From contig JAAYSZ010000033.1 in NCBI GenBank assembly GCA_012523895.1, forward strand, positions 59,389-123,388: a DNA stretch of 64,000 bases, read 5' to 3'. Under the pieces are notes generated by a model. It was not told the DNA's origin and ran no database searches. It worked only from the letters and a program-made list of their open reading frames with translations. Source of the DNA: Erysipelotrichaceae bacterium. Its GTDB lineage: Bacteria > Bacillota_I > Bacilli_A > Erysipelotrichales > Erysipelotrichaceae. How positions within the stretch are numbered: the stretch's first letter is position 1; each line of letters begins with the position of its first letter. The translations under genes and the position numbers were made by a program. Shown here piece by piece: positions 9,393 to 28,833 of the stretch.

Positions 9393-9443
9393 TATTATTG
9401 CCACCTTTCTATTAAAATTTATAGATTATAAGCAGTGATTTTT

Positions 9444-11308: not shown

Positions 11309-11317
11309 GTTTTCACC

Positions 11318-12046
11318 TCATAATAAGAAAGTTTTTCCAAATTCATAAGGAGGACCTGAAATTCCAGAAGTTTGTCGGTTTTTCAAGCCATTTGTATCAG
11401 TAATTACTAATCCAGCAAGTCTATCAATACCTAAATTTAAAAGTTCTGGGCAAAGTGGAACAGTAGGTCCAGCAAGTATTGTATAAGCATTTTTAGATAA
11501 TTCTAAAAGACGAGGAAGTGTTTTATTAATAAGGCTACTTCCAGTAATTATTACTATGTCACATTCTGGAAGTATCCATTCACATGCGGAAGCAGGATAG
11601 TCATTTGGTTTAGGATTAAGTTCAAGTATATAATATTTGGCTACTGCTTCTTTAACTTCTTTTGGCATTTTAAGATGTCCAACTATTCCTAATTTTTTTC
11701 CTGATAAATCAAGTCCTCTTGTACAATAATTTTCATAAGGTTCTTCACAGTTATACTGTTTCATTTTTTCTTCAGTATTAAGATATGCATTTGCAGATGC
11801 AAGACCAAGAGAAGCTTCTTCAAGATTCCAACTTTTTATTGCTTGTGAAGCTTTTGAAACATCCATTCCAATAAGACTTTCTTTAAATATAGGAGGACGA
11901 GTACTTCCTAAAGTAGTCATAGCGATACCTACATTATTTTTATTAGTTTCTACTAATGACCATGAATCACCCATAATAGTATCTACAATGATTTCTCCTT
12001 TAGGAATAGAATTTATTATAGTGTCATAAATTAAATTTTTATTCAT
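11318..12046 (-). CDS. DUF4213/DUF364 protein (Rossmann-like 'putative heavy-metal chelation' family)
   Basis: The pattern GIVGHL...ILE...DYPASACEWILPECDIVIITGSSLINKTLPRLLEL...ILAGPTVPL matches my recollection of DUF364. The function is unknown. Confidence 0.6.
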   Translation of the reverse strand: MNKNLIYDTIINSIPKGEIIVDTIMGDSWSLVETNKNNVGIAMTTLGSTRPPIFKESLIGMDVSKASQAIKSWNLEEASLGLASANAYLNTEEKMKQYNCEEPYENYCTRGLDLSGKKLGIVGHLKMPKEVKEAVAKYYILELNPKPNDYPASACEWILPECDIVIITGSSLINKTLPRLLELSKNAYTILAGPTVPLCPELLNLGIDRLAGLVITDTNGLKNRQTSGISGPPYEFGKTFLL

Positions 12047-12627
12047 TGTATTTCTCCATGTTCAATATATTTTTCTTTCCACTTTTTAAGTATGTTTAAT
12101 GCATTTTTATCTTTATAATTATTAATTTCTATTATTTTTATATCAGAATCTGATAATAAATTTAAATGAAATTGTTTTGTTGCTTTTAAGAAATCTGGAT
12201 GAAGATTTGTAGTTTTCAAGAGTTTTTCAGCGGAAGGAAGTGATTTTAAAACTCCAACACATGGAACTTGTGATTTAAGAAATAAATTGAAAGCTTCCAT
12301 AAATTCAGGTATTAAAATTTCAAAACCACCAATTTCATCTATAACCGCAAAAGGTTTAGTGGTAGCATCTTTTAAAAGGTTTGAAGCAAATATAGAAAAT
12401 GCTTCATTGTTTTTAACAGTCTTTCCTTCTTTAAATGTAAGAAATCTAACATGTTTATTATCTTTGCCTAAACCAAGGCTTACTATATCAAAACCTATAA
12501 GTTTATCGTGTTCTATTACTCGCTTAGTAATAAAACCACCAGCATAGTTAAGATTATCACCTAACACATTTTTTATAAGTGTGCTTTTACCACATCCTAT
12601 GGGACCTGTAATGAAAATTTTTTTCAA
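12043..12627 (-). CDS. THEP1-like P-loop nucleoside-triphosphatase
   Basis: Walker A GPIGCGKST, GGFITKRV...GFDIV, and Walker B-like VIDEIGGFE. Confidence 0.6.
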   Translation of the reverse strand: MKKIFITGPIGCGKSTLIKNVLGDNLNYAGGFITKRVIEHDKLIGFDIVSLGLGKDNKHVRFLTFKEGKTVKNNEAFSIFASNLLKDATTKPFAVIDEIGGFEILIPEFMEAFNLFLKSQVPCVGVLKSLPSAEKLLKTTNLHPDFLKATKQFHLNLLSDSDIKIIEINNYKDKNALNILKKWKEKYIEHGEIQ

Positions 12628-13634
12628 GATTTACTCCTAGTAGCTCTTAGTTCTATCATTTGAGCACATATGGAAATTGCTATTTCTTCAGGTGTTTCAG
12701 ATTTTATATCAAGTCCTATTGGTGTTGTTATTCTTTCAAAGTCTTTTTCATTAAAGCCTTGTTTTCTAAGCTCTGCTTGGACTCCAGCTATTTTATATTT
12801 ACTTCCAATTACTCCAATATAACATGCAGGTGTTTTTAAAACTTGTGCTTGAACTATTGTGTCGTGAGAGTGTCCACGTGTCATAATACAAACATAATCT
12901 TCAGGCCCTATTGTTATCTTTTCTAAGATATTATTAAAATCTACAAGAACAACATCTTCAGCATCGGGAAAGAGTTTTTTATCAGCAAATTCTGGACGAT
13001 CATCTGCGGCTATACATCTAAATCCAACATATGAAAGTATGGGAACTAGAGCTTGGCCTACATGACCACATCCAAAAATATAGACTTTACCAGAAAATCC
13101 TATTTGTTCAGCATACATATCCATATTTGTTTCTTTTACTCTTGTTGGTTGACGTGAAAGTTTATCAATAACAATTTCTGGTATATCAAATCCAAAACTT
13201 CCATCTGTTTTTGACCAAATAGCAAGTTTGCTTTCTTCTTTGATATCACTGATAAGCCAGATATCTTGGCCTAAATCAAATCTTCTTTCTGCTTCATTTA
13301 AAAGAGATAGAGTATTTTGATCTTTAGCGGGAATATAGTGGAAGAAAACTTCAACAGCACCACCACAAATCATACCTAGATTTTCTACATCATCTTTTGT
13401 AAGAGCAAAATTATGTCCGCTAGAACGTTTCTTTTTTAAAATTTCTGTAGCTATCTGTTCTGATTTAAATTCAACAGCACCACCACCAATAGTTCCTGTA
13501 AGCCTACCTTCTTTTCCAATAAGCATTCTTGCTCCTGTTCCTCGAGGAGTAGAACCTGATGAAGCAATTACTGTTACAAGAACTAAATCTTCTTTTAATA
13601 AGTAATCACTCATAAGTTTAAACATGTTTCGCAT
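12624..13634 (-). CDS. xdhC: XdhC/CoxI-family Mo-cofactor insertion/sulfuration accessory protein
   Basis: N-terminal XdhC_CoxI pattern (GSTPRGTGARMLI...GTIGGG) and C-terminal Rossmann motif IFGCGHVGQAL. I place the start at ATG 13634 behind GGAGG. Confidence 0.8.
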   Translation of the reverse strand: MRNMFKLMSDYLLKEDLVLVTVIASSGSTPRGTGARMLIGKEGRLTGTIGGGAVEFKSEQIATEILKKKRSSGHNFALTKDDVENLGMICGGAVEVFFHYIPAKDQNTLSLLNEAERRFDLGQDIWLISDIKEESKLAIWSKTDGSFGFDIPEIVIDKLSRQPTRVKETNMDMYAEQIGFSGKVYIFGCGHVGQALVPILSYVGFRCIAADDRPEFADKKLFPDAEDVVLVDFNNILEKITIGPEDYVCIMTRGHSHDTIVQAQVLKTPACYIGVIGSKYKIAGVQAELRKQGFNEKDFERITTPIGLDIKSETPEEIAISICAQMIELRATRSKS

Positions 13635-13668
13635 TTTGGCCTCCAATCTTTTTTGTTTAAAAATATTC

Positions 13669-14757
13669 TTATAATTTAATTATTTCTTGATTACATATTT
13701 TATTTATAGTTTCAATATTTTTTTTATTTATTTCAAACTTTTTTTCTATTATTTCCTTTAATTCATCAGTTTGAAATTTTTTAGCGCTTCTTTTAAATCT
13801 TTCATTTAGACCCACAACTTTATCTTCAAATACAACACGATCAGCAATAATTAATACTGCAAGTTCATCTATATTTTCAAAAATATAATTATCACAGTGT
13901 TTACCTATTATTTCTGCTTCTTTGTGATAACCTAATGCATCAATCCACTCTTTTCCAACTTTACAATGGTTTTTATTTGTTCTAGCTATATCGTGAAGTA
14001 ATGCCGTGTTTGTTATTAAATCAATATTTAAGTTGAATCCTTTTTCAATTAAACATAAACCTATTCTCTTAGCTTCTTTTGCTACTGCCATACTATGTTT
14101 TATTACATGTTCTGGTGTATTAGCCACATTAAGTAGTTGTAAACATAGATCTTCTGTAAGTAAAGGATTATATTGTTTTCCTATATATTCATCTGTAATA
14201 ATATTGTTTTTTAAATTAAGTTTTGATATTGAACAATAAGGTAAAAGTTTTCTGCCAGGTGGTAGCTCTTTTTTTAAAGTTTTAGAAAGAAAGGCATGCA
14301 TTATCGCAGAATGAGAAACTATGATAATATTTCCTTTTGTTTCTTTTAATATTTTTTTTAAAGCAAAATTAAATCTTATAAAAGCTTCTTCTTGATTTTC
14401 TGCACCTGGAGGTTGTAAAAAAGGATCTTTTCCTCTAGCTTCATAAAGTTTTGGCCATCGAACTTTAATTTCATCAAAAGAAAAACCATCCCATACACCA
14501 AAATTCATTTCTTCTAATCCATCAATTATTATTGGATTATTAAAGAATTCTGCTGTTTGGATGGCGCGTTTTAATCTACTACAAAATACATTTGAGATAT
14601 CAATGTCATTAAAATATTTTTCAGCTAAAAATGCTTGCATTTTTCCTATAGTAGAAAGATGCAAATCGGTATGTCCAATACAAACCTTTTTGCCATCAGG
14701 AAATTCTGGTAAACCATGGCGTATAAGATAGATTTCTCGCATTTTATTGGTCTCCAT
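13669..14757 (-). CDS. fusion protein: histidine phosphatase (CobC/PGM-like) N-domain plus HD phosphohydrolase C-domain
   Basis: LIRHG (RHG motif) and IIIVSHS in the N-terminal half; H...LHDIAR (HD motif) in the C-terminal half. The alternative start ATG 14742 (MREIYLIRHG) is equally plausible. Confidence 0.7.
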   Translation of the reverse strand: METNKMREIYLIRHGLPEFPDGKKVCIGHTDLHLSTIGKMQAFLAEKYFNDIDISNVFCSRLKRAIQTAEFFNNPIIIDGLEEMNFGVWDGFSFDEIKVRWPKLYEARGKDPFLQPPGAENQEEAFIRFNFALKKILKETKGNIIIVSHSAIMHAFLSKTLKKELPPGRKLLPYCSISKLNLKNNIITDEYIGKQYNPLLTEDLCLQLLNVANTPEHVIKHSMAVAKEAKRIGLCLIEKGFNLNIDLITNTALLHDIARTNKNHCKVGKEWIDALGYHKEAEIIGKHCDNYIFENIDELAVLIIADRVVFEDKVVGLNERFKRSAKKFQTDELKEIIEKKFEINKKNIETINKICNQEIIKL

Positions 14758-15683
14758 TATTTAAGTATTTCAGATAGATATTTTTCATAAAGCTCTATAG
14801 AAGCTTCTTTCATTGCTTTTTCATATTTACGATATTGTTCTAATAGCAACTTACCTTCTGGAGTTAGACTACTGCTACCTCCTCTAGAGCCACCTTGTTT
14901 ACGTAAAACTAAGTCAAAGCCTGCTTGAGATTCTATTGAATTAAGGGTTTTCCAACCTTTACTATAAGAAACTTGTATTCTTTGACAGGCTGTTTTAACT
15001 GATTTTGTTTCATCTATAAGCTCGAGTAAAAGTGCAATATTTGAGTCAAAAAACCTACTTTCTTTTTCAAGAGAAAGTTTAATAACAGGGCGCATCAATT
15101 GATTATTATGATATTCCAAAAGTTTATCAAATTCTTCAGGTGTGTCTGCATCGTATAATATGCCTTCATCTTCTATATAAACAAAACCTTCAGAAATATC
15201 TAGTTGTTTAAGAGCTTTTGCAAGACCACCTTCTCCGTTGTAATCTAATATAAGATTAATTGCTTTTGAAGAAAGAAGTATAGGATGACCCTTAATACCA
15301 CAACAGATTGGATACACTACATCACTTCGTTTTTTTAAAAGTTTTTTTACAGTATCAGCTCTAAAAAGAGGGATGTCAACAGGTGTAAATAAAACACGAT
15401 TACATTTATTTTTAAGGTAATTTAAACCTATACATGCTGAATCAAACATTTCAGTATTTTTATAATCTTCATTTCGAAGAAAAATCACACCACTTTTTGC
15501 AAGGTGCTTTTCAAGAACATCAGCATTATAACCAGTTACAACTACTATTTGAAAGACTCCTGCTTGTTGCAGTGTTGCAATAACACGCTGAGCCACGGAA
15601 ATAGAACCTATGCTTAACATAGGTTTGAAATCTCCCATTCTAGATGACATACCAGCAGCTGTTATTACTGCTCCTACTTTCAT
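14757..15683 (-). CDS. mocA: MocA-like molybdenum cofactor cytidylyltransferase fused to a ModE-N-type winged-helix DNA-binding domain
   Basis: N-terminal GAVITAAGMSSRMG NTP-transferase motif. The C-terminal SVKTACQRIQVSYSKGWKTLNSIESQAGFDLVLRKQGGSRGGSSSLTPEG equals the ModE/LysR-type HTH. As I recall it, this architecture is the one called the DVU_1551-family NTP transferase. Confidence 0.75.
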   Translation of the reverse strand: MKVGAVITAAGMSSRMGDFKPMLSIGSISVAQRVIATLQQAGVFQIVVVTGYNADVLEKHLAKSGVIFLRNEDYKNTEMFDSACIGLNYLKNKCNRVLFTPVDIPLFRADTVKKLLKKRSDVVYPICCGIKGHPILLSSKAINLILDYNGEGGLAKALKQLDISEGFVYIEDEGILYDADTPEEFDKLLEYHNNQLMRPVIKLSLEKESRFFDSNIALLLELIDETKSVKTACQRIQVSYSKGWKTLNSIESQAGFDLVLRKQGGSRGGSSSLTPEGKLLLEQYRKYEKAMKEASIELYEKYLSEILK

Positions 15684-15764
15684 GTATTCACCTTTCTTTC
15701 ATATCAAGACAAATTTAGATTATTATTTGATGCTTAGTATTATAAAATTATCAATAAACATATA

Positions 15765-15899
15765 AAAATAGCCGTTATTATTATTTATATTATAACACTC
15801 GCCTTAGCGAGTTGTAAACGTATACAACTTGTAAAAACAAACAACTTGAAAAGGTATTATACGCTTGTTATATTATAGATAGAGATAAACGGCTATTTT
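15765..15899. repeat. 12-bp perfect inverted repeat bracketing the promoter region
   Basis: AAAATAGCCGTT (15765-15776) and AACGGCTATTTT (15888-15899) are separated by 111 bp. The interval also holds GTTGTA-N6-TACAAC (15811-15828) and the direct repeat ACAACTTG at 15824-15831 and 15841-15848. Confidence 0.7.
15789..15818 (-). promoter_or_regulatory. sigma-A-type promoter for the mocA operon with an operator-like palindrome in the spacer
   Basis: The minus strand reads TTTACA, an 18-nt spacer, then TATAAT. The spacer contains ACTCGC-N4-GCGAGT (15797-15812). Confidence 0.55.
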
Positions 15900-15936
15900 A
15901 AAGCTTGTATATATAATTAAAAAATATAGAACGATT

Positions 15937-16200
15937 TTAATCTTCGTGATTATCACAGCGATGGACATCAGGTCCACCACCTGTCATATCTCTAAGACCA
16001 AGGAGTCCTTGTTCAGTATAGAATATAAGCGAAGTAGGTTTTCCTTGAATGTCTTCAGCAGAAAGTCGAAGAAAATTAGATGTTTCCAGATAACTTACAG
16101 GAAGTTTTCTAACATAAGCTTTTCCTGTCTCTTTATCGACTACTTTTACTTCTATTTCATCTGCACTGATTTTATTAGGCATATCGGCATTGCTATTCAT
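15937..16200 (-). CDS. hypothetical 87-aa protein with a His/Cys/Asp-rich C-terminal tail
   Basis: Strong AAGGAGA RBS 7 nt before the ATG. The protein ends ...MTGGGPDVHRCDNHED. I recognise no family. Confidence 0.55.
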   Translation of the reverse strand: MNSNADMPNKISADEIEVKVVDKETGKAYVRKLPVSYLETSNFLRLSAEDIQGKPTSLIFYTEQGLLGLRDMTGGGPDVHRCDNHED

Positions 16201-16358: not shown

Positions 16359-19112
16359 ATGAGTAAAGGATTAACCAAAAAGATTTTAAACATCAACGGA
16401 GCAAAGAGAAGTATTCTTGTAAAAGGTGATGAAAAACTCTCAACTATACTCCGTGAGCGTCTTTTGCTCACAGGATGTAAAATCGGTTGTGGGGAAGGTC
16501 ACTGTGGAGCATGTAATGTAATTTTGGATGGCAAGGTTACAAGATCCTGTGTTGTACCTATTTCCAGAGTTCCAGATTTTGCGGAAATTACTACAATAGA
16601 AGGAATAGGTACGCTTGATAACTTACATCCACTTCAAGTTGCTTGGATGGCTTATGGATGTGCACAGTGTGGATTCTGCAGCCCTGGCTTTATTGTTAGT
16701 GCTAAGGTTTTATTAGATCAAAATCCTAGTCCTACAAGAGAAGAAGTTAGAGATTGGTTCCACAAATGTCGTAACCTTTGCAGATGTACTGGTTACAAGC
16801 CATTAATCGATGCTACTATGGCTGCAGCTGAGGTATTAAGAGGTGAAAAAACTAAAGAAGATCTTATGTTTACACCAACAGATAATCGTATACTTGGTAC
16901 CGACTATGTACGTCCTTCAGCAGCAATGAAGGTAACTGGAACTTGGGATTTTGGTGCTGATGATGCACTTTATATGCCACCAGATACTTTACGTTTAGCT
17001 CTTGTTCAAGCAGAAGTTTCACATGCTAATATTAAAGGTATCGATACTTCTGAAGCAGAGAAAATGCCTGGAGTTTACCAAATTATTACTGCAAAAGATG
17101 TTCCTGGTAAAAACCGTATCAACGGACTTGTTATGTTACCTTTAAATAACAAGTGTGATGGCTGGGATCGTCCAATACTTTGTGATGAAAAAGTATTCCA
17201 ATTTGGAGATGCAATTGCAATAGTAGCTGCAGATACTGAAGAAAATGCTAGAGCAGCCGCAAAAGCTGTAAAAGTTGATTTGGAAGTTCTTCCTGCATAT
17301 ATGAGTGTTCCTGAAGCACTAGCTCCTGATGCAATAGAAATTCATCCAGGAATTCCAAATGAATACTATGAAACAAATTGTATTAAAGGTCCAGATTTTG
17401 ATTGGGACAGTGTTCCTGAAGAAAATCAAGTTGAAATTGAAAGTTATTGTTCACGCCAACCTCACCTATATCTAGAACCAGATAATGGTTATGCATATAT
17501 TGATGAAGATGGTATGTTGACTATTCATTCAAAGAGTATAGGTATCCATTTACATATGCCTATGATTGCTGATGGTATTGGTGTAAGTATGGATAAACTA
17601 AGATTAGTTCAAAACAATGCTGGAGGAACATTTGGTTATAAGTTCTCTCCAACTAATGAGGCTTTATTAGGAGTTGCAGCATTTGTAACTAAGAGACCAG
17701 TTAGTTTGAACTTTAATATGTATCAATCAATCACATATACTGGAAAGAGAAGTCCAGGATTCATGAATATTAAGTTAGCAGCTGATGATGATGGAAAATT
17801 GCTTGCACTTTGGGGTCGCAATTACATTGACCATGGTCCATATTCAGAATTTGGTGACTTATTAACTCATAGACTTACTCAGTTTGTAGGTGCAGGTCTT
17901 GATATTCCAAGTATAAGAAATAAGAACTCAACAGTATTTACTAACCATGCATGGGGTTCAGCATTTAGAGCTTATGGTTCACCTCAAGCATTTATGGGAA
18001 GTGATATTGCTATTGATTGTCTAGCAGCTAAGATGGGAATAGATCCATTTGAAATGAGGGCTATGAACTGTTATAAGGAAAGCGAAGATTCTCGCACACC
18101 GACAGGTTGTAGACCAGATGTTTATTGCTTAGAAGGTCTTTATGATTTAGCTCGTCCTAAGTATCAAGAAGGTAAAAAGCGTGTAGAAGAAAAGAATGCT
18201 GCTTCTGATGGAAAAATCAAATACGGTATTGGAGTATCTTTAGGTATTTATGGTTGTGGTTTAGATAACTCAGATGTATCAGAGTGCTATGCAGACTTAC
18301 TAGAAGACAATACTGTACTTGTTAGAAACTCTTGGGAAGATCATGGACAAGGTGCTGATATTGCAACATTAACTGCAGCACATGAAGCACTAAGAGAAGC
18401 AGGATTTAAGCCAGAAGATATTAAATTATTCCAATGCGATACTAAGCATACGCCTAACTCAGGTCCAGCAGGAGGAAGCCGTTCTACTGTTATGACAGGT
18501 AATGCTACTCGTATTGCGTGTGAAAATTTAGTTAAAGCAATGAGAAAAGAAGATGGAACATACAGAACTTATGCGGAAATGAAAGAAGAAGGAATAGATA
18601 CTCATGCAAAAGGTGTATACACTTACACTGCTTCAGTTTCACTTAACCAAGAAACTGGACAAGGAGAACCATTCCCAGCATATATGTATAGTATCTTCCT
18701 ACCTGAAGTTGCAGTTGATACTGAAACAGGTAAAGTTAAGGTTGAAAAGTTCACTTGTGTTGCTGATGTAGGAACTATATTAAATAAGACAACAGTTGAT
18801 GGTCAATTCTATGGTGGTCTAGTTCAAGGTATAGGTCTTGCATTAACAGAGGATTTTGAAGATCTTAATAAACATACATCACTTATAAGATGTGGAATTC
18901 CTTATCCATTAGATGCACCAGATGATATGGAAATTATCTATCAAGAAACATATCGTCCAAACAGCTTATTTGGAGCTGCAGGTTGTGGGGAAGCACCACT
19001 TGATGCACCTCACCCAGCTATACTAAACGCTATATATAATGCTACTGGCGCACGTATAACTAGAGTTCCTGCAAAACCAGAGGTTGTTCTAGAAGCATTA
19101 AAAAATATATAA
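16359..19112 (+). CDS. mop: molybdopterin (MCD)-dependent aldehyde oxidoreductase, Desulfovibrio gigas MOP type (2x[2Fe-2S] plus Moco domains, no FAD domain)
   Basis: CGEGHCGAC and CAQCGFCSPG cluster motifs. Long collinear identity with my recollection of D. gigas MOP (NLHPLQ.AW, GFCSPGFIVSAK.LLD, VSHANIKGIDTSEA, GWDRPILCDEKVFQ.GD, DHGPYSEFGDLLT, WEDHGQGADI, PNSGP.GGSR). 917 aa. Confidence 0.9.
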   Translation: MSKGLTKKILNINGAKRSILVKGDEKLSTILRERLLLTGCKIGCGEGHCGACNVILDGKVTRSCVVPISRVPDFAEITTIEGIGTLDNLHPLQVAWMAYGCAQCGFCSPGFIVSAKVLLDQNPSPTREEVRDWFHKCRNLCRCTGYKPLIDATMAAAEVLRGEKTKEDLMFTPTDNRILGTDYVRPSAAMKVTGTWDFGADDALYMPPDTLRLALVQAEVSHANIKGIDTSEAEKMPGVYQIITAKDVPGKNRINGLVMLPLNNKCDGWDRPILCDEKVFQFGDAIAIVAADTEENARAAAKAVKVDLEVLPAYMSVPEALAPDAIEIHPGIPNEYYETNCIKGPDFDWDSVPEENQVEIESYCSRQPHLYLEPDNGYAYIDEDGMLTIHSKSIGIHLHMPMIADGIGVSMDKLRLVQNNAGGTFGYKFSPTNEALLGVAAFVTKRPVSLNFNMYQSITYTGKRSPGFMNIKLAADDDGKLLALWGRNYIDHGPYSEFGDLLTHRLTQFVGAGLDIPSIRNKNSTVFTNHAWGSAFRAYGSPQAFMGSDIAIDCLAAKMGIDPFEMRAMNCYKESEDSRTPTGCRPDVYCLEGLYDLARPKYQEGKKRVEEKNAASDGKIKYGIGVSLGIYGCGLDNSDVSECYADLLEDNTVLVRNSWEDHGQGADIATLTAAHEALREAGFKPEDIKLFQCDTKHTPNSGPAGGSRSTVMTGNATRIACENLVKAMRKEDGTYRTYAEMKEEGIDTHAKGVYTYTASVSLNQETGQGEPFPAYMYSIFLPEVAVDTETGKVKVEKFTCVADVGTILNKTTVDGQFYGGLVQGIGLALTEDFEDLNKHTSLIRCGIPYPLDAPDDMEIIYQETYRPNSLFGAAGCGEAPLDAPHPAILNAIYNATGARITRVPAKPEVVLEALKNI

Positions 19113-19150: not shown

Positions 19151-19184
19151 AAAGAGGCAGGGTATACTGCCTCTTTGTTTATTT
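19151..19184 (+). terminator. rho-independent terminator after mop
   Basis: AAAGAGGCAG pairs with CTGCCTCTTT around a GGTATA loop, followed by GTTTATTT. Confidence 0.7.
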
Positions 19185-19228: not shown

Positions 19229-21529
19229 ATGGATCATTTTAAAGAAAGATCTACTAGAGATTACTTTCAAAAAAAGCTCTATACTATGGAGGAACTTTTT
19301 AAGCGTGAAAATCGTTGTATTTATGAAGAACCTGCATTTTGTCATGCGGCGTGTCCTCTGGGTTTAGATGCAAAAAAACTTGCATTTTTCATTGAAAAAG
19401 GAGCTTTTTCTGATGCACGTGCAATGCTTGAACACATAACTCCTTTTCCTATGATACTTGCTTATGGTTGTGATGCACCTTGTGAAAAAGCTTGTAGGAT
19501 GAATGAAGTAGGAGAAGGTATTAATATAAGAGGACTTGAACGTGCAGCAATGTATCATGGATCACCAAAGGGTGGAAAAGGATTGTTTAAATTTAAGAAA
19601 AAACAAAAGGCAGCGGTTTTTGGTTCTGATTTATTTTCACTTTTTTTAGCTGGTGAATTAGCTAGGAAAAGCTATCCTACAAGTTTCTATGTAAATCAAA
19701 AAGATGCAATTTCTCTATTAAAAGACTGTGCTCCTTTTTTATTAAAAGATGATTTAGTTAATGAAGCTAAAAGACTTGAAAATATGGATATAAAAATATT
19801 ATATTCTTCTAATCTTACAAAAGAGTTTTTTGAAAGTGAGAAAGATAATTTTGATATAATTGCAACTTCACGTAGTTTTTTAGATATGTGTTTTCCAAAT
19901 GATATTCCTAACAAGGAAACTTTATTAGCGCCTATTTCTAATATTCTAAGTTCTCAAGATAGTAATCCAAGTGTTTTACAATCTATTTTTGATGCAAGAA
20001 GAGCGGGAGTTTCTGTAGATCGTATATCTCAAGGATTAGACCCTGCAAGCTCTCGTGGAGAAGAGGGTTCTAGAGAATCAAGACTTTATACAAATATGAA
20101 TGAAGCTATACCATCAAATCAAATTTATGAACCAGAAAATGGATATATTACTAAAGAAGCAATAGAAGAAGCTTCACGTTGTATACAATGTAAATGTGAA
20201 GAATGTATAAAACATTGTGTTTTCTTACAAGATACTGGTAAATATCCTAAAAAGCTAACACGTGAAATATTCAATAATGTAGATATTATAATGGGCGATC
20301 ACATGATGAATAAAACAATAAATTCTTGTTCTTTGTGTGGACAGTGTACTGTTACATGTCCTAATGGTTATGACATGGCTGAAATTTGTTTAGATGCTAG
20401 AGAAAATATGGTTAGTACAACTAAGATGGCTTTGGCTTATCATGAATTTGCTCTTTTAGATATGCTTTTTTCAAACAATGAAGCTTTTCTTTCTAAACCT
20501 CAAGTAGGATATGAAAAGTGTAAATATGTATTTTTTCCAGGTTGTCAAGCTGGGGCTATAGCTCCTGATGCTGTATTTAAAGCTTATGTTGATTTGTCAA
20601 AAAGACTTGATGGAGGAGTGGGGCTTATAAATGGCTGTTGTGGTGCTATAGCTAAATGGGCTGGTAGAACTGCAATTTATGAAGAATGCGAAGAACAATT
20701 AAAAAATGAAATTAATAAATTAGGAAATCCTTTAATAATAGCTGCTTGTCCTACATGTAAAAAAACACTAGAAGAAATGCTTAAAATAGAAGTTAAAGGG
20801 ATATGGGATGTTCTTAATGAAATAGGTTTACCAAAAGGTGCCTTAGAATATGATAGACCTCTTATCATGCACGATTCTTGTAGTGCTAGAGGAGATAGTG
20901 ATATGCAAGCTTCTATACGTAAACTTACAAATAGTTTAGGTTGTACATTAAAGGATGTTCCATACAATGGTGATATGAGTGAGTGTTGTGGTTATGGAGG
21001 GCTTGTAAGTTATGTAAATAAGGAACTTGCATCTAAGATGGCTCAAAGTTGTACTAAGGATGAAGATGTGCCTTTTATTAGTTATTGTATGGCTTGTCGT
21101 GATCGTTTTGCTAGAGAAAAAAGAGAGAGCATGCATGTACTAGAATTAGTTTATGCAGCACCTGCAGGTAATCCACCTGATATTTCTAAAAAGCGAAAAA
21201 ACAGGTTAAGTTTAAAGAGAAAGTTATTAGAAGAAATATGGAAAGAGGAGGTCATAGTGATAAATCCTGAATATAAGATAGTAATATCAGAAGATGTAGC
21301 TAAAATTCTTGATGAGCGTATGATACTAGAAGAAGATGTATATTCTGTTATAGAAGCTTATCATGAAGATGGAAGTGCTGTTTATGATGAAATAGATGGT
21401 ACACTTACAAGTTCTTTAAGAAAGGGTAATGTTACATTTTGGCTTAAATTTAAAAAGGATGAACCTGATGTGTATATTATTCTTGGAGCATATAGCCACC
21501 GTATGAAGGTGAGAGTGAGGTATGAATGA
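19229..21529 (+). CDS. multidomain Fe-S protein: GltD-like N-terminal cluster domain, degenerate dinucleotide-fold remnant, 2x ferredoxin-type motifs, two HdrD/GlpC-type CCG repeats, and a C-terminal domain of unknown function
   Basis: CHAACP...GCDAPCEKAC; AAVFGSDLFSLFLAG in place of GxGxxG; CIQCKCEECIKHC and CSLCGQCTVTCP; FPGCQAG...CCGAIAKW and HDSCSARG...ECCGYGG. Confidence 0.7.
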   Translation: MDHFKERSTRDYFQKKLYTMEELFKRENRCIYEEPAFCHAACPLGLDAKKLAFFIEKGAFSDARAMLEHITPFPMILAYGCDAPCEKACRMNEVGEGINIRGLERAAMYHGSPKGGKGLFKFKKKQKAAVFGSDLFSLFLAGELARKSYPTSFYVNQKDAISLLKDCAPFLLKDDLVNEAKRLENMDIKILYSSNLTKEFFESEKDNFDIIATSRSFLDMCFPNDIPNKETLLAPISNILSSQDSNPSVLQSIFDARRAGVSVDRISQGLDPASSRGEEGSRESRLYTNMNEAIPSNQIYEPENGYITKEAIEEASRCIQCKCEECIKHCVFLQDTGKYPKKLTREIFNNVDIIMGDHMMNKTINSCSLCGQCTVTCPNGYDMAEICLDARENMVSTTKMALAYHEFALLDMLFSNNEAFLSKPQVGYEKCKYVFFPGCQAGAIAPDAVFKAYVDLSKRLDGGVGLINGCCGAIAKWAGRTAIYEECEEQLKNEINKLGNPLIIAACPTCKKTLEEMLKIEVKGIWDVLNEIGLPKGALEYDRPLIMHDSCSARGDSDMQASIRKLTNSLGCTLKDVPYNGDMSECCGYGGLVSYVNKELASKMAQSCTKDEDVPFISYCMACRDRFAREKRESMHVLELVYAAPAGNPPDISKKRKNRLSLKRKLLEEIWKEEVIVINPEYKIVISEDVAKILDERMILEEDVYSVIEAYHEDGSAVYDEIDGTLTSSLRKGNVTFWLKFKKDEPDVYIILGAYSHRMKVRVRYE

Positions 21530-21747
21530 CAGACAATAAAGTATACTACACTGTAGAAACTGGGGATAATCTTATTTGTCAAAAATGTGGTATTCCTTTG
21601 GTGAAGACTGAAGCAGTTTTTGAGTATTTAAATAATTCATTTCCTGTTGAACTTCCTGCTTGTCCTAAATGTGGTTTTGTATATGTTCCAGAGGATTTAG
21701 CATTAGGAAAAGTTCTTTCTGTAGAGAAGGTATTAGAGGATAAGTAA
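21526..21747 (+). CDS. 73-aa CxxC...CxxC zinc-ribbon/rubredoxin-like protein (recalled as the DVU_1557-family redox protein)
   Basis: CQKCG and CPKCG pairs. An ATGA overlap with the upstream gene indicates translational coupling. Confidence 0.6.
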   Translation: MTDNKVYYTVETGDNLICQKCGIPLVKTEAVFEYLNNSFPVELPACPKCGFVYVPEDLALGKVLSVEKVLEDK

Positions 21748-22316
21748 TGGATGCATTAAAGTCTTCATGTTTAAATAAAAAAAATGAAAGACATCCTGGA
21801 GGATATGATACAACAATGTATTTAATTAAACTTTCAAGTATAGAACCATGTAAGATTTTAGATATGGGTGCTGGAAGTGGAACTACTGTAAAGCTTTTAA
21901 AAAAACTGGGATTTGATGCTTTTGGGATTGATTTAAATCCTGGAGAAGGTGTAGAAAAAGGAGATATGTTAAATACGAATTTTTCTAATGAAAGTTTTGA
22001 TGCAATTATTTCAGAATGTTCATTTTTTATTACAAAAGATTCTTGTAAAGTTCTTAAAGAAGCTAATAGGATTCTTAAAAAGGGTGGAAAACTTCTTCTA
22101 TCAGATATATTTTATGGTGATGAAAAAGAACTTTGTAAATTCTTAATGGAAGGTGGATTTAAACCTTTACTGTATAAGGATATTACTGACAAGTGGAAAC
22201 ATTATTATATAGAAAGAATATGGGATGGAACTGCAGATGAATTTTGTAATTTAAAACATGATAGTTATAGTATTAAAAAATTTAGATATTTTTTAAGTGT
22301 CAGTGAAAGGATGTGA
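21747..22316 (+). CDS. class I SAM-dependent methyltransferase (recalled as the DVU_1556 family)
   Basis: Motif I ILDMGAGSGTT and motif post-I FGIDL. TAATG overlap with the upstream gene. Confidence 0.7.
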   Translation: MDALKSSCLNKKNERHPGGYDTTMYLIKLSSIEPCKILDMGAGSGTTVKLLKKLGFDAFGIDLNPGEGVEKGDMLNTNFSNESFDAIISECSFFITKDSCKVLKEANRILKKGGKLLLSDIFYGDEKELCKFLMEGGFKPLLYKDITDKWKHYYIERIWDGTADEFCNLKHDSYSIKKFRYFLSVSERM

Positions 22317-22321
22317 ATTTT

Positions 22322-22747
22322 ATGAGTGATATTTTCGAAAGGATATTAGAATATTCTCAAAAAGGTTATTCTTGTTCACAGGTTATGTTATTGATTGCTC
22401 TTGAAAGTGAGGGTAAGGAAAATCAGGACTTGGTTCGTGCGGTAGCTGGTTTAAGAAGAGGACTTGGTGGAACAGGTGGAGTTTGTGGAGTTCTTAGTGG
22501 TGGAATGTGTTTTTTAAGCTATTTTGGTGGAAAAGGTAGTGATGACGAAGTAGAAAATGAAAATTTAAAAATCATGTATAAAGAACTTTATAATTGGTTT
22601 GTTGAATATACTGCTGAATATGGTGGTATTAATTGTAAACAAATAATAGCTGATGATTCACGTAACTATGTACAACGTTGTCCAATACTAATTAGAGATA
22701 CATTAGAACAATGTATCTCTATCTTACAAAAATACGATTTAATATAA
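22322..22747 (+). CDS. C_GCAxxG_C_C family protein (recalled as the DVU_1555 family)
   Basis: GYSCSQ...GGVCGVLSGG...NCKQII...RCP pattern. I prefer ATG 22322, 10 nt after GAAAGGA, over the track GTG at 22313. Confidence 0.7.
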   Translation: MSDIFERILEYSQKGYSCSQVMLLIALESEGKENQDLVRAVAGLRRGLGGTGGVCGVLSGGMCFLSYFGGKGSDDEVENENLKIMYKELYNWFVEYTAEYGGINCKQIIADDSRNYVQRCPILIRDTLEQCISILQKYDLI

Positions 22748-22772
22748 ATAATTTATTTTAGGAGGTTTTTAA

Positions 22773-24104
22773 GTGATTGAAATTATTTCAAAAACTAAAA
22801 GTGTTTGCCCTATATGTCTTAAACGCATAGATGCAAATAAGATAGTAGGAAAAGATGGATATATTTATATGCAAAAGTCTTGTTTTGAACATGGAGATTT
22901 TGAAACTCTTATTTGGGAAGGAGATTTAAAAAGTTATTTAGATTGGGCAAAATTATCTAAAGAAGGATTGTCACCTACCAACACAAAAAAATCTGAAAAG
23001 GGTTGCCCTTATGATTGTGGGCTTTGTGAAAATCATAAAAGTGAAAGTTGTTGTGTTCTTTTAGAATTAACAAATAGATGTAATCTTAAATGTCCTGTGT
23101 GTTTTGCGACAGCTGGAGAAGGTGTAGAAAAAGATTTGAGTTTAAAAGAGATAGAGACTCAATTTGATATGTTACTAAAAAGAAAAACACGTAAAGGACT
23201 TTTTAATATACAGCTTTCAGGAGGAGAACCGACATTAAGAGATGATTTAGCTGATATTATTGCTCTTGGAAGAAAAAAAGGTTTTTCTTATTTTCAATTA
23301 AATACTAATGGTGTAAGAATAGCTAAAGAAACAGGTTACGCAAAATATTTAAAAGATGCAGGAGTATCTAGTGTGTTTTTACAGTTTGATGGACTTAGGG
23401 ATTCTACATATAAAATCTTACGTGGAATACCTCTTTTAGATATAAAATTAAAAGCAATAGAATATTGTGCAAAAGTTGGGCTGGGTGTAGTTCTTGTCCC
23501 TACTGTAACTTTTAATGTAAATGAAGATGAGATAGGAGCTATTATTGATTTTGCACAAAGTAAGCATCCTGCAATAAGAGGTGTTCATTTTCAACCACTT
23601 AGCTATTTTGGTAGATGTGAGTTAGAAAGTAGAACTAAAATAACTATTCCACGTATGCTAAAACATATTGAAGAACAAAGTTTTAATAAAATAAAAGCTA
23701 GTGATTTTTCAGGTGGAGGAGCTGAGAGTCCATATTGTTCTTTTCATGCAAGTTATAGAAGGATGAGTGATGGAACATTTAAGTCATTACCTAAAAAACA
23801 AGATCAATCATGTTGTGATGTTTCAAATGCAAGAAATTTTGTTTCAAGACAATGGAGTGGTCCTAGTATTGTGGGTAATACAACTTCTTGTTGTTCTACT
23901 AAAGATCCATTTGATGAATTTATAGAAAATACAATTAGAGATACATTTACAATATCTGGGATGGTTTTTCAAGATGCATATGATTTAGATCTTGAAAGAC
24001 TTAGACGTTGTAAAATTTGTGAGGTAGATAGTGAATATGGAATGGTTCCTTTTTGTTCATATAATCTTACAAATATAAAGGGAGAGGCTTTATATAGAAA
24101 ATGA
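22773..24104 (+). CDS. radical SAM protein with an N-terminal Cys-rich zinc-ribbon-like motif and a Cys-rich C-terminal region (recalled as TrsS; this copy is the Cys form, not the Sec form)
   Basis: CPICLKRIDA...CFEHGD; CNLKCPVC (CX3CX2C); LSGGEPTL; C-terminal SCCDVS...SCCSTKD...CKICE. GTG start 7 nt after AGGAGG. Confidence 0.75.
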   Translation: MIEIISKTKSVCPICLKRIDANKIVGKDGYIYMQKSCFEHGDFETLIWEGDLKSYLDWAKLSKEGLSPTNTKKSEKGCPYDCGLCENHKSESCCVLLELTNRCNLKCPVCFATAGEGVEKDLSLKEIETQFDMLLKRKTRKGLFNIQLSGGEPTLRDDLADIIALGRKKGFSYFQLNTNGVRIAKETGYAKYLKDAGVSSVFLQFDGLRDSTYKILRGIPLLDIKLKAIEYCAKVGLGVVLVPTVTFNVNEDEIGAIIDFAQSKHPAIRGVHFQPLSYFGRCELESRTKITIPRMLKHIEEQSFNKIKASDFSGGGAESPYCSFHASYRRMSDGTFKSLPKKQDQSCCDVSNARNFVSRQWSGPSIVGNTTSCCSTKDPFDEFIENTIRDTFTISGMVFQDAYDLDLERLRRCKICEVDSEYGMVPFCSYNLTNIKGEALYRK

Positions 24105-25300
24105 AAAAATCTGCTTTAGATAAATGGATATGTGAAAAAGAGAATATTAGTTATTTAACTAGAGACATATTAGATGAATTACAGTTAACTAAGTTAAATA
24201 AACTTTTATCAAGGGTGAAAAAGCGTAAGGGATTTTATTCTTGTTTACCAGAGTATCTAACTAGTTTAAAAGAATTAGAAAATTTACCTTTTACAACTAC
24301 AAAGGAATTAGCTGAAAATGCATCTTCTTTACTTTTAAGTTCTCAATCGGAAGTAAGTAGAGTTATTTCAGGTTCTACAAGTGGAACCACAGGTCCTTCT
24401 AAAAGGATCTTTTATTCTGATAAAGATTTAGATAATACTTTAACTTTTTTTGCGGCTGGTATATCTGAGATGGTATCAGAAGGTGAAAGTGTTTTGATTA
24501 CCATGCCTTTTTCTGGAGGATTAGGTGAACTTATCGCAAAAGCGGTGGAATCTCTTGGTGCTAGGCCTATTAGAGCAGGTTCAAACTTAACTTATGGAGA
24601 GCTTTGTGAAATTATGAAACAAGAGTGTCCTAGTTCATATATAGGTATGCCTATACCTTTACTTTCTTTACTTAGATTTTGTAATGGAAAATCCACTTTA
24701 AAAAGTGCTTTAGTTTCTGCGGATGTATGTTCTTCTTTAGTTCAAAAAGAAATTGAAAACTTACTTGGTAGTAAACTTTTTCCTCATTATGGACTTAGAG
24801 AATCTTGTCTTGGAGGTGCTATTACATGTAAAGCTCATAAAGGTATGCATGTAAGAGAAAATCATATAATTCCTGAAATAATAGGAAAAAATGGAAGACC
24901 TGTTGAAAATGGTGAGTATGGAGAGTTGGTTATAACAACTATTGGAATGGAGTTAATGCCACTTATTAGATATAAAACTGGTGATAGAGCTTGTATATTA
25001 TCAAAACCATGTCCTTGTGGATCAGTGTGTGTAAGGATAGAAGTAGAAGGACGAATGGATGATAAATTACGAATGTCAGATATTGATGATGTATTATTTG
25101 ATATAAAAGAATTGATAGATGTAAAAGCTAAATTTATAGGAAATACATTAGAGGTTAGTGCATATGTTTTAAAAGATAATGAAACACAAAAAGAGATTCA
25201 AAAACGTATTTCTTTGTTATGTCCTAATAATAAAATAAATATTGAAGTTTGTGATAATAATTGTAAATCTTTATATTTAGGAAAAAGAATAATTGAATAA
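24101..25300 (+). CDS. PaaK / coenzyme-F390-synthetase-like AMP-forming adenylating ligase (recalled as the DVU_1553 family)
   Basis: SGSTSGTTGPSKRIFYS AMP-binding P-loop and YKTGDRA. 399 aa, the size of a phenylacetate-CoA-ligase-type enzyme. ATGA overlap with the rSAM gene. Confidence 0.75.
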   Translation: MKKSALDKWICEKENISYLTRDILDELQLTKLNKLLSRVKKRKGFYSCLPEYLTSLKELENLPFTTTKELAENASSLLLSSQSEVSRVISGSTSGTTGPSKRIFYSDKDLDNTLTFFAAGISEMVSEGESVLITMPFSGGLGELIAKAVESLGARPIRAGSNLTYGELCEIMKQECPSSYIGMPIPLLSLLRFCNGKSTLKSALVSADVCSSLVQKEIENLLGSKLFPHYGLRESCLGGAITCKAHKGMHVRENHIIPEIIGKNGRPVENGEYGELVITTIGMELMPLIRYKTGDRACILSKPCPCGSVCVRIEVEGRMDDKLRMSDIDDVLFDIKELIDVKAKFIGNTLEVSAYVLKDNETQKEIQKRISLLCPNNKINIEVCDNNCKSLYLGKRIIE

Positions 25301-26487: not shown

Positions 26488-26760
26488 ATGCCTGTAATTA
26501 AATCAAGCACTGATCTTCGTAACAATTATAATGAAATATCTAATTTTTGTAATGAGACAGATGAAACAGTTTTTATAACAAAAAATGGTAGAGGCGATTT
26601 AGCTGTGATGAGCATTGAGACTTATGAACGTCTTGTTGGGAAAAACGAACTTTACTTACTTCTTGAAGAAAGTGAAAAATATATTGGCAAAGGAGAAAAA
26701 AAGCCTTTAAAAGATGTAATTTCTACTTTAAGAAAAGAGATAAAACATAAAAAAATATAA
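26488..26760 (+). CDS. type II antitoxin, Phd/YefM family
   Basis: MPVIKSSTDLRNNYNEISNFCNETDETVFITKNGRGDLAVMSIETYE is the classic Phd/YefM N-domain. AGGAGG RBS. Confidence 0.85.
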   Translation: MPVIKSSTDLRNNYNEISNFCNETDETVFITKNGRGDLAVMSIETYERLVGKNELYLLLEESEKYIGKGEKKPLKDVISTLRKEIKHKKI

Positions 26761-27061
26761 TATATATGTTTCTTATCTTGCGGAAAAAGATTTAGAAGAG
26801 ATAGTTTTATATATTCAAAATAAACTCTATGCACCAAAAGTAGCGCTAGAGTTTTTAGATGGATTTGAATTATTTATTGAAAACTTAAGTGTTATGCCTT
26901 TTAAAAACCCATTAGTTAAGGATAAAAGATTAGCTTTAAAAGGATATAGATATTATATTTTTAATAATTATTTGGTTTTTTATACTATAAATGAAAAAGA
27001 GTTATGTGTAGATATACATAGAATTCTTTACTCAAGAAGAAATTGGATGTATATGCTATGA
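26747..27061 (+). pseudogene. ParE/RelE-family toxin ORF lacking a canonical start codon (ATA where ATG is expected)
   Basis: Open frame (I)KKYNIYVSYLAEKDLEEIVLYIQNKLYAPKVALEFLDGFELFIENLSVMPFKNPLV...YRYYIFNNYLVFYTINEKELCVDIHRILYSRRNW, with its stop at 27059-27061. There is no ATG, GTG or TTG between the upstream in-frame stop (26741-26743) and the conserved N-terminus. The ORF is absent from the ORF track for that reason. Confidence 0.6.

Positions 27062-27111: not shown

Positions 27112-28833
<1,722 letters not shown>

Follow-up and report, generated by a model that had tools for sequence, protein, structure and literature searches.

The region described here lies in a window of 64,000 nucleotides from an Erysipelotrichaceae bacterium (assembly GCA_012523895.1, contig JAAYSZ010000033.1, positions 59,389 to 123,388). 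It contains mop, the gene of an aldehyde oxidoreductase dependent on molybdopterin cytosine dinucleotide (MCD), followed by six tightly packed genes. The G+C content of the cluster region is about 30-35%, against about 28% across the 64-kb window, and the nearest named relatives are Bacillota metagenome-assembled genomes (MAGs) of Tissierellia and Saccharofermentanales, at about 70-77% amino-acid identity. An ENA metagenome contig matches the window region at 98.7% over 20.4 kb, and its independent gene calls agree with ours. Each of the six open reading frames that a first-pass annotation had placed after mop was recovered by gene calling, and the overlaps from which it deduced translational coupling are present in the sequence (ATGA at 21526, TAATG at 21747, ATGA at 24101).

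16359-19112, forward strand: mop, 917 amino acids, MCD-dependent aldehyde oxidoreductase
19229-21529, forward strand: Fe-S/CCG protein (DVU_1558-type, NF045663), 766 amino acids
21526-21747, forward strand: DVU_1557-family four-Cys protein, 73 amino acids
21747-22316, forward strand: class-I S-adenosylmethionine (SAM) methyltransferase, DVU_1556-like, 189 amino acids
22322-22747, forward strand: DVU_1555-family C_GCAxxG_C_C protein, 141 amino acids from ATG 22322; alternative GTG at 22313
22773-24104, forward strand: TrsS radical SAM enzyme, 443 amino acids, GTG start
24101-25300, forward strand: DVU_1553-family PaaK-like adenylate-forming ligase, 399 amino acids

The GTG at 22773 that opens the TrsS gene is preceded by an AGGAGG ribosome-binding site. 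Since homologues of the C_GCAxxG_C_C protein are all 140-141 amino acids long, and the gene calls on the near-identical contig likewise use ATG 22322, this is most likely the true start of the 141-residue protein, and the overlap with the methyltransferase gene at 22313 therefore disappears.

The family names given in the first-pass annotation (DVU_1553, DVU_1555, DVU_1556, DVU_1557 and TrsS) are confirmed by NCBIfam profile matches, and five of the six proteins pass the curated cut-offs: the Fe-S/CCG protein (NF045663, 778.7 bits against 530, covering profile positions 3-758 of 759), the DVU_1557 protein (NF045645, 94.6 against 60, with PF24292, DUF7479), the C_GCAxxG_C_C protein (NF045669, 160 against 103, with PF09719), TrsS (NF045646, 562.4 against 490) and the ligase (NF045666, 318.4 against 300). 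Mop itself belongs to NF045668 (1499 bits, cut-off 1100). The methyltransferase falls short, with 106.7 bits to NF045667 (DVU_1556 family, cut-off 155) and Pfam matches to Methyltransf_11, _23, _25 and _31; because NF045667 is its best match and the gene occupies the syntenic position, it is probably a divergent member of that family.

The cluster had been described as a six-gene unit. In effect it comprises about ten families, since the divergent genes at 12624-16200 belong to it as well:

12624-13646, reverse strand: XdhC-family aldehyde oxidoreductase maturation factor (XdhC_rel_AOR; NF045664, 317.7 bits against a cut-off of 350)
13669-14757, reverse strand: histidine phosphatase plus HD domain (NF045665 positions 197-357; His_Phos_1, HD)
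14757-15683, reverse strand: MocA-like cytidylyltransferase plus ModE-type helix-turn-helix (HTH) domain (NF045665 positions 2-196, 196.6 bits; TIGR03310; TIGR00637 over residues 214-295)
15937-16200, reverse strand: 87-residue conserved protein with the C-terminal motif LTGxGPDxDxCGxH (recognised by tblastn)

Because the MocA and HD parts match the two halves of NF045665, all nine NCBIfam families of DVU_1551-DVU_1559 are present between 12624 and 25300, seven of them above the curated cut-offs and two, the methyltransferase and XdhC, below. The XdhC_rel_AOR protein aligns over its full length to NF045664 and lies in the syntenic position. The MocA-HTH gene is divergent from mop in Clostridial loci, as a conserved arrangement. 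The 87-residue protein, called as a gene on the near-identical contig, has no NCBIfam, Pfam or PDB match.

The neighbourhood has not gone unnoticed. NCBIfam holds models for DVU_1551-DVU_1559 (NF045645, NF045646 and NF045663-NF045669, numbered consecutively) and the gene sets appear in Aklujkar et al. 2017 (PMC5640608), so that the window cluster is a member of a known, bioinformatically defined neighbourhood. A 2026 review (PMC13188914) lists TrsS as a selenoprotein family, citing Haft and Tolstoy 2025. The first-pass annotation knew of no assigned biochemistry for the six families, and a literature search that included the DVU_155x locus tags likewise gave nothing functional; neither did we find a molybdenum-enzyme paper discussing this accessory system.

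To follow the cluster beyond the window, we scanned genomes with a TrsS alignment, took the best 80 of at least 593 matches as loci L001-L080 and scored their genes by tblastn with the window proteins. Among the 56 loci with at least 6.5 kb of upstream sequence, Mop (at least 40% identity) is present in 50. The association with mop beyond chance, on which the interest of the cassette had been made to depend, thus holds, and it extends over at least five phyla. The ligase follows TrsS in 68/72 loci; the Fe-S/CCG protein is found in 61/66, the DVU_1557 protein in 62/66, the C_GCAxxG_C_C protein in 60/66 and the methyltransferase, in the same position, in 56/66. The 87-residue protein has matches in 34 of the 80 loci, adjoining Mop on either strand or lying between DVU_1557 and XdhC. 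Contexts seeded with DVU_1557 give the same order in two of three cases (an Ardenticatenaceae MAG and a JGI metagenome contig), the third contig being too short to judge. The same arrangement of genes is seen in Clostridia, Negativicutes and Thermodesulfobacteriota as well as in Nitrospirota, Spirochaetota and Chloroflexi; besides members of the last three phyla, the hosts include Oscillospiraceae, Lachnospiraceae (Blautia), Peptococcaceae, Pelotomaculum, Fusibacter, Veillonellaceae, Selenomonadales, Sporomusa, Desulfocapsaceae and further 'delta-proteobacterial' MAGs.

Some of these loci gather the whole set on one strand. In the Nitrospirota locus L064 a single co-directional operon runs from a MogA-like gene through Mop, Fe-S/CCG, DVU_1557, methyltransferase and C_GCAxxG_C_C to XdhC, MocA, TrsS, ligase, HD and MoeA-PBP, and in L078 (Thermodesulfobacteriota) a single tightly packed operon ends with ligase, XdhC, MocA-HD and histidine phosphatase. 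From mop to the ligase the window has the same order as the Thermodesulfobacteriota loci L076-L078. Its cluster is of the DVU_1551-DVU_1559 type of D. vulgaris Hildenborough, with these differences: the DVU_1551 family is split into MocA plus ModE-type HTH and histidine phosphatase plus HD; the molybdenum cofactor (Moco) genes run divergently and are not placed after the ligase; the Fe-S/CCG protein has a degenerate flavin motif; and TrsS has the Cys form, not the selenocysteine form. The phosphatase is a separate gene in Thermodesulfobacteriota and in 26 of the 80 loci. Taken together, this conservation makes it very probable that the cassette is an accessory system dedicated to Mop and not an independent unit.

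Rearranged loci provide additional clues on how the system is built. In L080, a Thermodesulfobacteriota MAG, the genes for DVU_1557, methyltransferase, C_GCAxxG_C_C, TrsS, ligase and MoeA follow another kind of molybdoenzyme, and of the Fe-S/CCG protein there is no more than a free-standing copy of its C-terminal domain. In L031, XdhC_rel_AOR, methyltransferase, MocA-HD, TrsS, ligase and a HAD phosphatase, here in place of the histidine phosphatase, stand next to an enzyme of the aldehyde oxidoreductase (AOR) family, with no Mop, Fe-S/CCG protein, DVU_1557 or C_GCAxxG_C_C protein within 10 kb. The Sporomusa locus L074 has a rhodanese gene followed by Fe-S/CCG, DVU_1557, C_GCAxxG_C_C, TrsS and ligase genes, without Mop. 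Three further loci (L035, L037 and L043) hold orphan TrsS genes of 54-55% identity with no other cluster families nearby.

Clostridium ljungdahlii separates the same groups of genes. It has two tandem clusters with sigma-54 regulators (Aklujkar et al. 2017, PMC5640608). The first comprises Mop, Fe-S/CCG, four-Cys, methyltransferase, C_GCAxxG_C_C, radical SAM and XdhC genes and is co-induced 2-7 fold on syngas and H2/CO2; the second comprises Mop, Fe-S/CCG, four-Cys, C_GCAxxG_C_C and adenylyltransferase genes, then XdhC, MocA-HD and a CobC-like phosphatase (PMC5640608). Here the genes were equated with the TrsS and DVU_1553 families by published annotations and positions, not by sequence. Duplicated are Mop, Fe-S/CCG, four-Cys, C_GCAxxG_C_C and XdhC; single-copy and shared are the methyltransferase, radical SAM enzyme, ligase, MocA-HD and phosphatase. 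Unlike these two clusters, the window has one complete copy with a MocA-HTH fusion.

Because L080, L031 and the C. ljungdahlii clusters separate the groups in this way, the system divides into two modules. Fe-S/CCG, DVU_1557 and C_GCAxxG_C_C are Mop-specific partners and look like its redox partner. The methyltransferase, TrsS and ligase form a shared module, kept with Moco-processing and sulfur-mobilising genes, which looks like a maturation module. A NifS-like cysteine desulfurase gene (TIGR01977 at 289-310 bits, also resembling the selenocysteine lyase SclA) immediately precedes TrsS, in the same orientation, in 12 of the 80 loci, and together with the rhodanese of L074 provides the sulfur link that we count for the maturation module. 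The first-pass annotation had read the six genes together as tailoring a cofactor or small molecule or activating the molybdenum enzyme. For the methyltransferase, TrsS and ligase that reading gains support from comparison: they are interleaved with XdhC_rel_AOR, MocA-HD and phosphatase in distant phyla, they can be preceded by the NifS-like gene, and they stay with Moco genes apart from Mop (L031, C. ljungdahlii). The Fe-S/CCG protein and DVU_1557, in contrast, are better read as an electron-acceptor module than as tailoring enzymes, because C. ljungdahlii has second copies of both along with its second Mop, one locus (L069) joins the two in a single protein, and in L080 a CoxM-type FAD subunit takes the place of the Fe-S/CCG protein.

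The molybdoenzyme of L080 (4295-7917) is unusual: it has an N-terminal [2Fe-2S] domain fused to an enzyme of the bis-molybdopterin guanine dinucleotide (bis-MGD) type (PF00384/PF01568), and is preceded by the CoxM-type subunit; it thus mixes parts of the DMSO-reductase and xanthine-oxidase families.

The Fe-S/CCG protein consists of an N-terminal Fer4_20 domain, a relic dinucleotide-binding domain, a 2x[4Fe-4S] ferredoxin domain, two HdrD-type CCG domains and a C-terminal domain (Pfam: Fer4_20, Fer4_17 and two CCG stretches), and its cluster and CCG cysteines are all 95-100% conserved. The dinucleotide-binding motif GxGxxG implied by the name of NF045663 is degenerate in the window (AAVFGSDLFSLFLAGE); it is present in 27 of 62 homologues, mostly beyond the Clostridial clade, and is intact in Thermodesulfobacteriota, Nitrospirota, Spirochaetota and Sporomusa. 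The succession of a 2x[4Fe-4S] ferredoxin domain and two CCG domains with fully conserved cysteines recalls HdrD, DsrK, GlpC and TfrB. Unlike in those proteins, the CCG part here shares its chain with an N-terminal cluster domain of GltD type and with a flavin domain that is often degenerate, and is partnered by a zinc-ribbon protein of 70 amino acids.

That partner, DVU_1557, has four invariant cysteines (Cys18, 21, 46 and 49 in the window; 99-100% conserved in homologues) and ends in [LM]EDK-COOH in 70 of 70 homologues (LEDK in the window), an invariance that suggests a site for docking or attachment. The sole fusion seen is that of L069, where DVU_1557 continues in frame from the C-terminus of the Fe-S/CCG protein; the 120 best of 2112 DVU_1557 matches (E <= 1e-6) are all stand-alone proteins of 64-92 amino acids. 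It is a zinc-ribbon or rubredoxin-like protein and probably the small subunit of the Fe-S/CCG protein. We also considered a LysW-, lipoyl- or biotinyl-type carrier and keep it as an improbable reading only, since no such protein was matched when the PDB was searched with the DVU_1557 profile, the best match being the MasE small subunit (E=0.0016). In the C_GCAxxG_C_C protein five cysteines are 97-100% conserved; a PDB sequence search found nothing, and its all-alpha AlphaFold model (pLDDT 83.8) has no fold match in the PDB (best E=0.43, TM below 0.3).

Mop has two [2Fe-2S] domains and no FAD domain (Pfam: Fer2, Fer2_2, Ald_Xan_dh_C, MoCoBD_1 and MoCoBD_2), and its two clusters would therefore need an outside acceptor. 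We tentatively put forward a two-part model, to which we give somewhat less than an even chance, in which an electron-acceptor module for Mop is combined with a maturation module for its molybdenum-pterin centre. In the first part, the Fe-S/CCG protein with its small subunit DVU_1557, and probably with the C_GCAxxG_C_C protein as thiol partner, would take electrons from Mop. We infer that they run along a chain of 4Fe-4S clusters and end at the CCG site, which is of the HdrD/DsrK type and would use them to reduce a disulfide or persulfide; lineages with an intact flavin domain may also pass electrons to pyridine nucleotide. For the C. ljungdahlii genes, electron transport was the only function proposed (Aklujkar et al. 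2017, PMC5640608).

The second part of the model turns on TrsS. This protein has Zn_ribbon_HMPTM and Radical_SAM domains (Pfam) and an invariant CX3CX2C motif (Cys103, 107 and 110), and its nearest solved relative is GDGT-MAS (PDB 7TOL, E=2e-83, residues 6-313 and 393-433). GDGT-MAS, or Tes, contains a rubredoxin-type Fe site of the form C-X2-C-X20-C-X2-H, an N-terminal [4Fe-4S] cluster held by three Cys and one His, the radical SAM cluster, and a C-terminal [4Fe-4S] cluster with a labile Met; the substrate radical becomes linked through a C-S bond to one of the sulfides of this last cluster (Lloyd et al. 2022, PMC9433317). TrsS has the same domain order and keeps all four metallocofactor sites, with ligands that align to those of 7TOL; C12, C15, C37 and H40, C78, C82, C85 and H88, C103, C107 and C110, and M397, C413 and C428 are invariant in 19 TrsS sequences. 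The lipid-pocket segment of 7TOL (about 330-455), however, has no aligned counterpart in TrsS, which instead has GGGAESPYCSFHASY, a CC pair and a hypervariable acidic Cys-rich insert, and unlike Tes it occurs in bacteria without a tetraether context, its gene lying in molybdenum-enzyme clusters. Since it also scores 344.9 bits against the Tes model NF045702 (cut-off 450), with only residues 7-329 aligned, TrsS is not a Tes. From the metal sites that it keeps, we suggest that it probably works like one, abstracting hydrogen from an inert sp3 carbon and capturing the radical on a cluster sulfide.

The Cys-rich stretch of TrsS, first taken for a C-terminal tail, is an internal variable insert at about residues 346-374. 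Three Lachnospiraceae sequences (L063, 10001-11660; L072, 6259-7812; L058, 10001-11485) carry tandem acidic poly-Cys inserts of up to 31 Cys, with repeats of the type CCCGEPEP...EESCCCCG at the position of the GDGT-MAS lipid pocket. A link between insert length and the NifS-like neighbour was considered, as the five most Cys-rich TrsS all have such a gene, and set aside: four of those five are from Lachnospiraceae, and the link is thus confounded by phylogeny. The window TrsS has the Cys form, the name of NF045646 allowing both this and a selenocysteine form. Its gene has no in-frame TGA, and across the 80 loci none is aligned to a Cys of any cassette protein, so that the catalytic Cys whose place selenocysteine takes in other TrsS proteins could not be located from them. 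Searches for TrsS on plasmids gave only relatives of about 30% identity, none within such a cluster. L034 contains a second TrsS paralogue (10240-11547, reverse strand), 38% identical to the window TrsS, about 8 kb from the cassette copy and on the opposite strand.

The methyltransferase and the TrsS inserts could also point to the processing of metalloids or organometals, with methyltransferase and radical SAM enzyme acting on thiol-bound arsenic, selenium or tellurium as in ArsM/ArsS and ArsM/ArsL, binding by the C_GCAxxG_C_C protein and by the poly-Cys insert of TrsS, and Mop and Fe-S/CCG supplying redox chemistry. The methyltransferase gives weak matches to ArsM and TehB models (E 1e-9 to 1e-3), some TrsS inserts are acidic and extremely rich in cysteine, and the TrsS and C_GCAxxG_C_C families have selenoprotein forms (NCBIfam names; PMC13188914). 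An ArsM-type assignment was nevertheless rejected: the similarity is confined to residues of about 70-123, a generic SAM-binding segment, and unlike ArsM the enzyme has no invariant Cys, the best being Cys91 at 86%. Moreover, no ars, mer or tellurite genes occur in the loci inspected, nor does an in-frame TGA stand for Cys in the 80 loci, and we consider metalloid processing very improbable.

The ligase has the Pfam domain AMP-binding, matches PaaK (PDB 4R1L, E=3e-32) and conserves the ANL motifs A3, A8 and A10 together with Cys243, Cys304 and Cys306. It shares the fold and these adenylation motifs with PaaK and coenzyme F390 synthetase; its invariant Cys243 and CPCG motif set it apart from them, and against the PaaK model TIGR02155 it reaches 92.6 bits, far from the cut-off of 646.3. 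As its nearest relatives are phenylacetate-CoA ligases and its adenylation motifs are all kept, one could suppose that Mop and the cassette form a metabolic pathway for one small molecule. Mop would then interconvert aldehyde and acid, the ligase would make an acyl-AMP, a coenzyme A ester or a protein thioester, TrsS and the methyltransferase would alter the carbon skeleton, Fe-S/CCG, DVU_1557 and C_GCAxxG_C_C would handle electrons, and XdhC and MocA would be there solely for Mop. Such a pathway finds further support in the sigma-54 activators that flank both C. ljungdahlii clusters and the induction of cluster 1 on syngas and H2/CO2, in the proximity of TrsS, ligase and methyltransferase to an AOR-family aldehyde oxidoreductase in L031, and in locus L086 of an Ardenticatenaceae MAG, where a thiol transferase and a CN-hydrolase lie between TrsS and ligase. 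The distribution of neighbours, however, argues against it. No transporter, thiolase, dehydratase or other catabolic gene is conserved with the cluster in the loci examined; TrsS and ligase are interleaved with the XdhC, MocA, HD and phosphatase genes and do not adjoin Mop; the gene directly ahead of TrsS in 12 loci is NifS-like; and in L080 the cassette follows a bis-MGD-family enzyme that is not of the aldehyde type. We thus regard a dedicated pathway as unlikely. The view of the first-pass annotation that this is not a catabolic route agrees with the lack of any conserved substrate-specific transporter in the loci examined. The thiol transferase of L086 (8366-9664 for the two intervening genes) is of the DinB/MST type.

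Returning to the two-part model, in its second part the methyltransferase, TrsS and ligase would work alongside XdhC_rel_AOR, MocA-HD, the phosphatase and, in some lineages, the NifS-like enzyme. Their target would be the molybdenum-pterin centre prior to its insertion by XdhC, through ATP-, SAM- and sulfur-dependent chemistry in which TrsS most likely takes hydrogen from an unactivated sp3 carbon and traps the radical on a sulfide of its C-terminal [4Fe-4S] cluster, like GDGT-MAS. We infer the substrates of TrsS, methyltransferase and ligase as well as the nature of the product, which would be a labile group containing sulfur (or selenium) and not a stable modification of the pterin.

The crystallised enzymes bear directly on that product. 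The cassette-linked Mop of L078 scores 1516 bits against the D. desulfuricans enzyme (1DGJ) and 1462 against the D. gigas enzyme (1SIJ/1VLB), with identities of about 75% and about 70%, respectively, as read by eye from the alignment and not computed. Because of this similarity, both crystallised enzymes belong to the cassette-linked orthologous group. D. gigas MOP is said to have been the first enzyme of the xanthine-oxidase family to be crystallised. High-resolution structures of the D. gigas and D. desulfuricans enzymes reportedly show an ordinary, unmodified MCD, and D. gigas MOP is reportedly active without a sulfido ligand. Whether that ligand is present at the MOP active site is still debated. 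The stable covalent tailoring of the MCD pterin suggested in the first-pass annotation is therefore unlikely, cassette-linked Mop being some 70-75% identical to enzymes reported to have ordinary MCD, and any product of the maturation module must be labile, transient or off the cofactor.

These structures and the reported activity also weigh against maturation of the molybdenum centre as such, and they do not stand alone. To our knowledge, a ligase, a methyltransferase or a radical SAM enzyme has no role in any known system of Moco sulfuration. There, a cysteine desulfurase together with XdhC or PaoD is enough (PMC2997495). The R. capsulatus xanthine dehydrogenase and E. coli PaoABCD systems resemble the window cluster in having an XdhC chaperone and a MocA-type enzyme beside a xanthine-oxidase-family enzyme; unlike it, they need no radical SAM enzyme, methyltransferase, ligase, HD protein, histidine phosphatase or Fe-S/CCG protein (PMC2997495). 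The NifS-like gene is found in 12 of the 80 loci only, and both C. ljungdahlii clusters adjoin sigma-54 activators of the kind usual for catabolic operons that are induced by their substrate. As L031 lies beside an AOR-family enzyme, aldehyde or acid chemistry would explain that locus as well as pterin chemistry. In addition, many of the 80 loci are phylogenetically redundant (nine, for example, are of Blautia type), and the 80 are the nearest of at least 593 TrsS relatives.

In an alternative scenario the product might be a thiol arm borne by a protein. The ligase would acylate the C-terminal Lys of DVU_1557 (LEDK-COOH), TrsS would insert sulfur into the acyl chain in the manner of LipA on octanoyl-lysine, by the C-S(cluster) chemistry of GDGT-MAS, the methyltransferase would cap the group, and the CCG site of the Fe-S/CCG protein would recycle the thiol/disulfide arm as an electron acceptor. 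The [LM]EDK end of all 70 DVU_1557 proteins and their four invariant Cys fit this proposal, as do the fusion or translational coupling of DVU_1557 to the Fe-S/CCG protein, the adenylate-forming character of the ligase, the cluster that forms the C-S intermediate in GDGT-MAS and is kept in TrsS, and the NifS-like genes adjoining TrsS. L080, too, keeps DVU_1557 with TrsS, ligase and methyltransferase despite the loss of Fe-S/CCG. L031, on the other hand, has the three enzymes with no DVU_1557 within 10 kb, the DVU_1557 profile finds no LysW, lipoyl or biotinyl domain (MasE, at E=0.0016, is its best match), and the invariant C-terminus could equally be a docking peptide, so that we hold this scenario to be improbable. 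The broader proposition that TrsS, methyltransferase and ligase, with a dedicated cysteine desulfurase, build a labile organosulfur or organoselenium group, be it a molybdenum ligand lost in aerobic purification or a lipoyl-like arm on the DVU_1557 Lys, we consider rather unlikely, if a little less so.

This accessory system accompanies mop in thousands of anaerobes, among them acetogens, sulfate reducers and the abundant gut Oscillospiraceae and Blautia. Should the molybdenum centre indeed be matured by the methyltransferase, TrsS and ligase, these would constitute a new type of molybdoenzyme maturation and a second chemistry for the GDGT-MAS fold; if Fe-S/CCG and DVU_1557 are the acceptor, the physiological electron route of Mop would be identified; and if the proposed labile group exists, the textbook MOP enzymes would have been studied without part of their native cofactor system. 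In the literature that we reached we did not find the split into two modules, the insertion of a NifS-like gene before TrsS or the GDGT-MAS metal sites in TrsS, nor the LEDK terminus, the fusion of Fe-S/CCG with DVU_1557, the additional 87-residue family or the association with pterin enzymes other than Mop.

The terminator assigned to mop in the first-pass annotation was recovered as a GC-rich hairpin of 10 base pairs with a T-rich tail at 19151-19176 (forward strand), between mop and the Fe-S/CCG gene, where it may act as a terminator or an attenuator. The gap between these two genes has a median of 95 nt across loci, and under a strict criterion 20 of 56 loci have in it a GC-rich hairpin together with a T-run; several of the hairpins are similar in stem sequence. 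Their recurrence would fit an attenuator or 3'-stabiliser yielding more Mop than accessory proteins. On the other side of mop, the ModE-type winged-helix domain of MocA lacks the molybdate-binding Mop/TOBE domains and is encoded at the divergent promoter region shared with mop; the MocA-HTH fusion is kept in Oscillospiraceae and Lachnospiraceae loci.

Beyond XdhC_rel_AOR, three further features were recognised by Pfam or NCBIfam matches:

8280-11308, reverse strand: type-II ABC importer (BtuCD/FecCD-type)
11318-12046, reverse strand: DUF364/DUF4213 'heavy-metal chelation' protein
12043-12627, reverse strand: NTPase_1

Behind the ligase in L048, and behind XdhC in L028, lies an NTPase of that family, and a homologue of the substrate-binding protein (68% identity) follows the ligase in L020. 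The importer, DUF364/DUF4213 protein and NTPase_1 may be a set for uptake and insertion of a metal or cofactor tied to the Mop cluster, although the linkage is weak.

The gene downstream of the ligase is dusB, unrelated to the cluster. A Moco riboswitch was considered and discarded, as Rfam over the whole window yields a T-box leader only (RF00230, 117.5 bits, 27114-27322, forward strand), upstream of a lysyl-tRNA synthetase gene at 27340-28833. Ahead of the T-box lie a PhdYeFM-type antitoxin gene (26488-26760, forward strand) and a ParE-like toxin frame (26747-27058, forward strand). The latter is 92% identical to an intact gene on the near-identical contig and opens in the window with an Ile codon in place of ATG, reflecting either a start-codon mutation or a non-canonical start.

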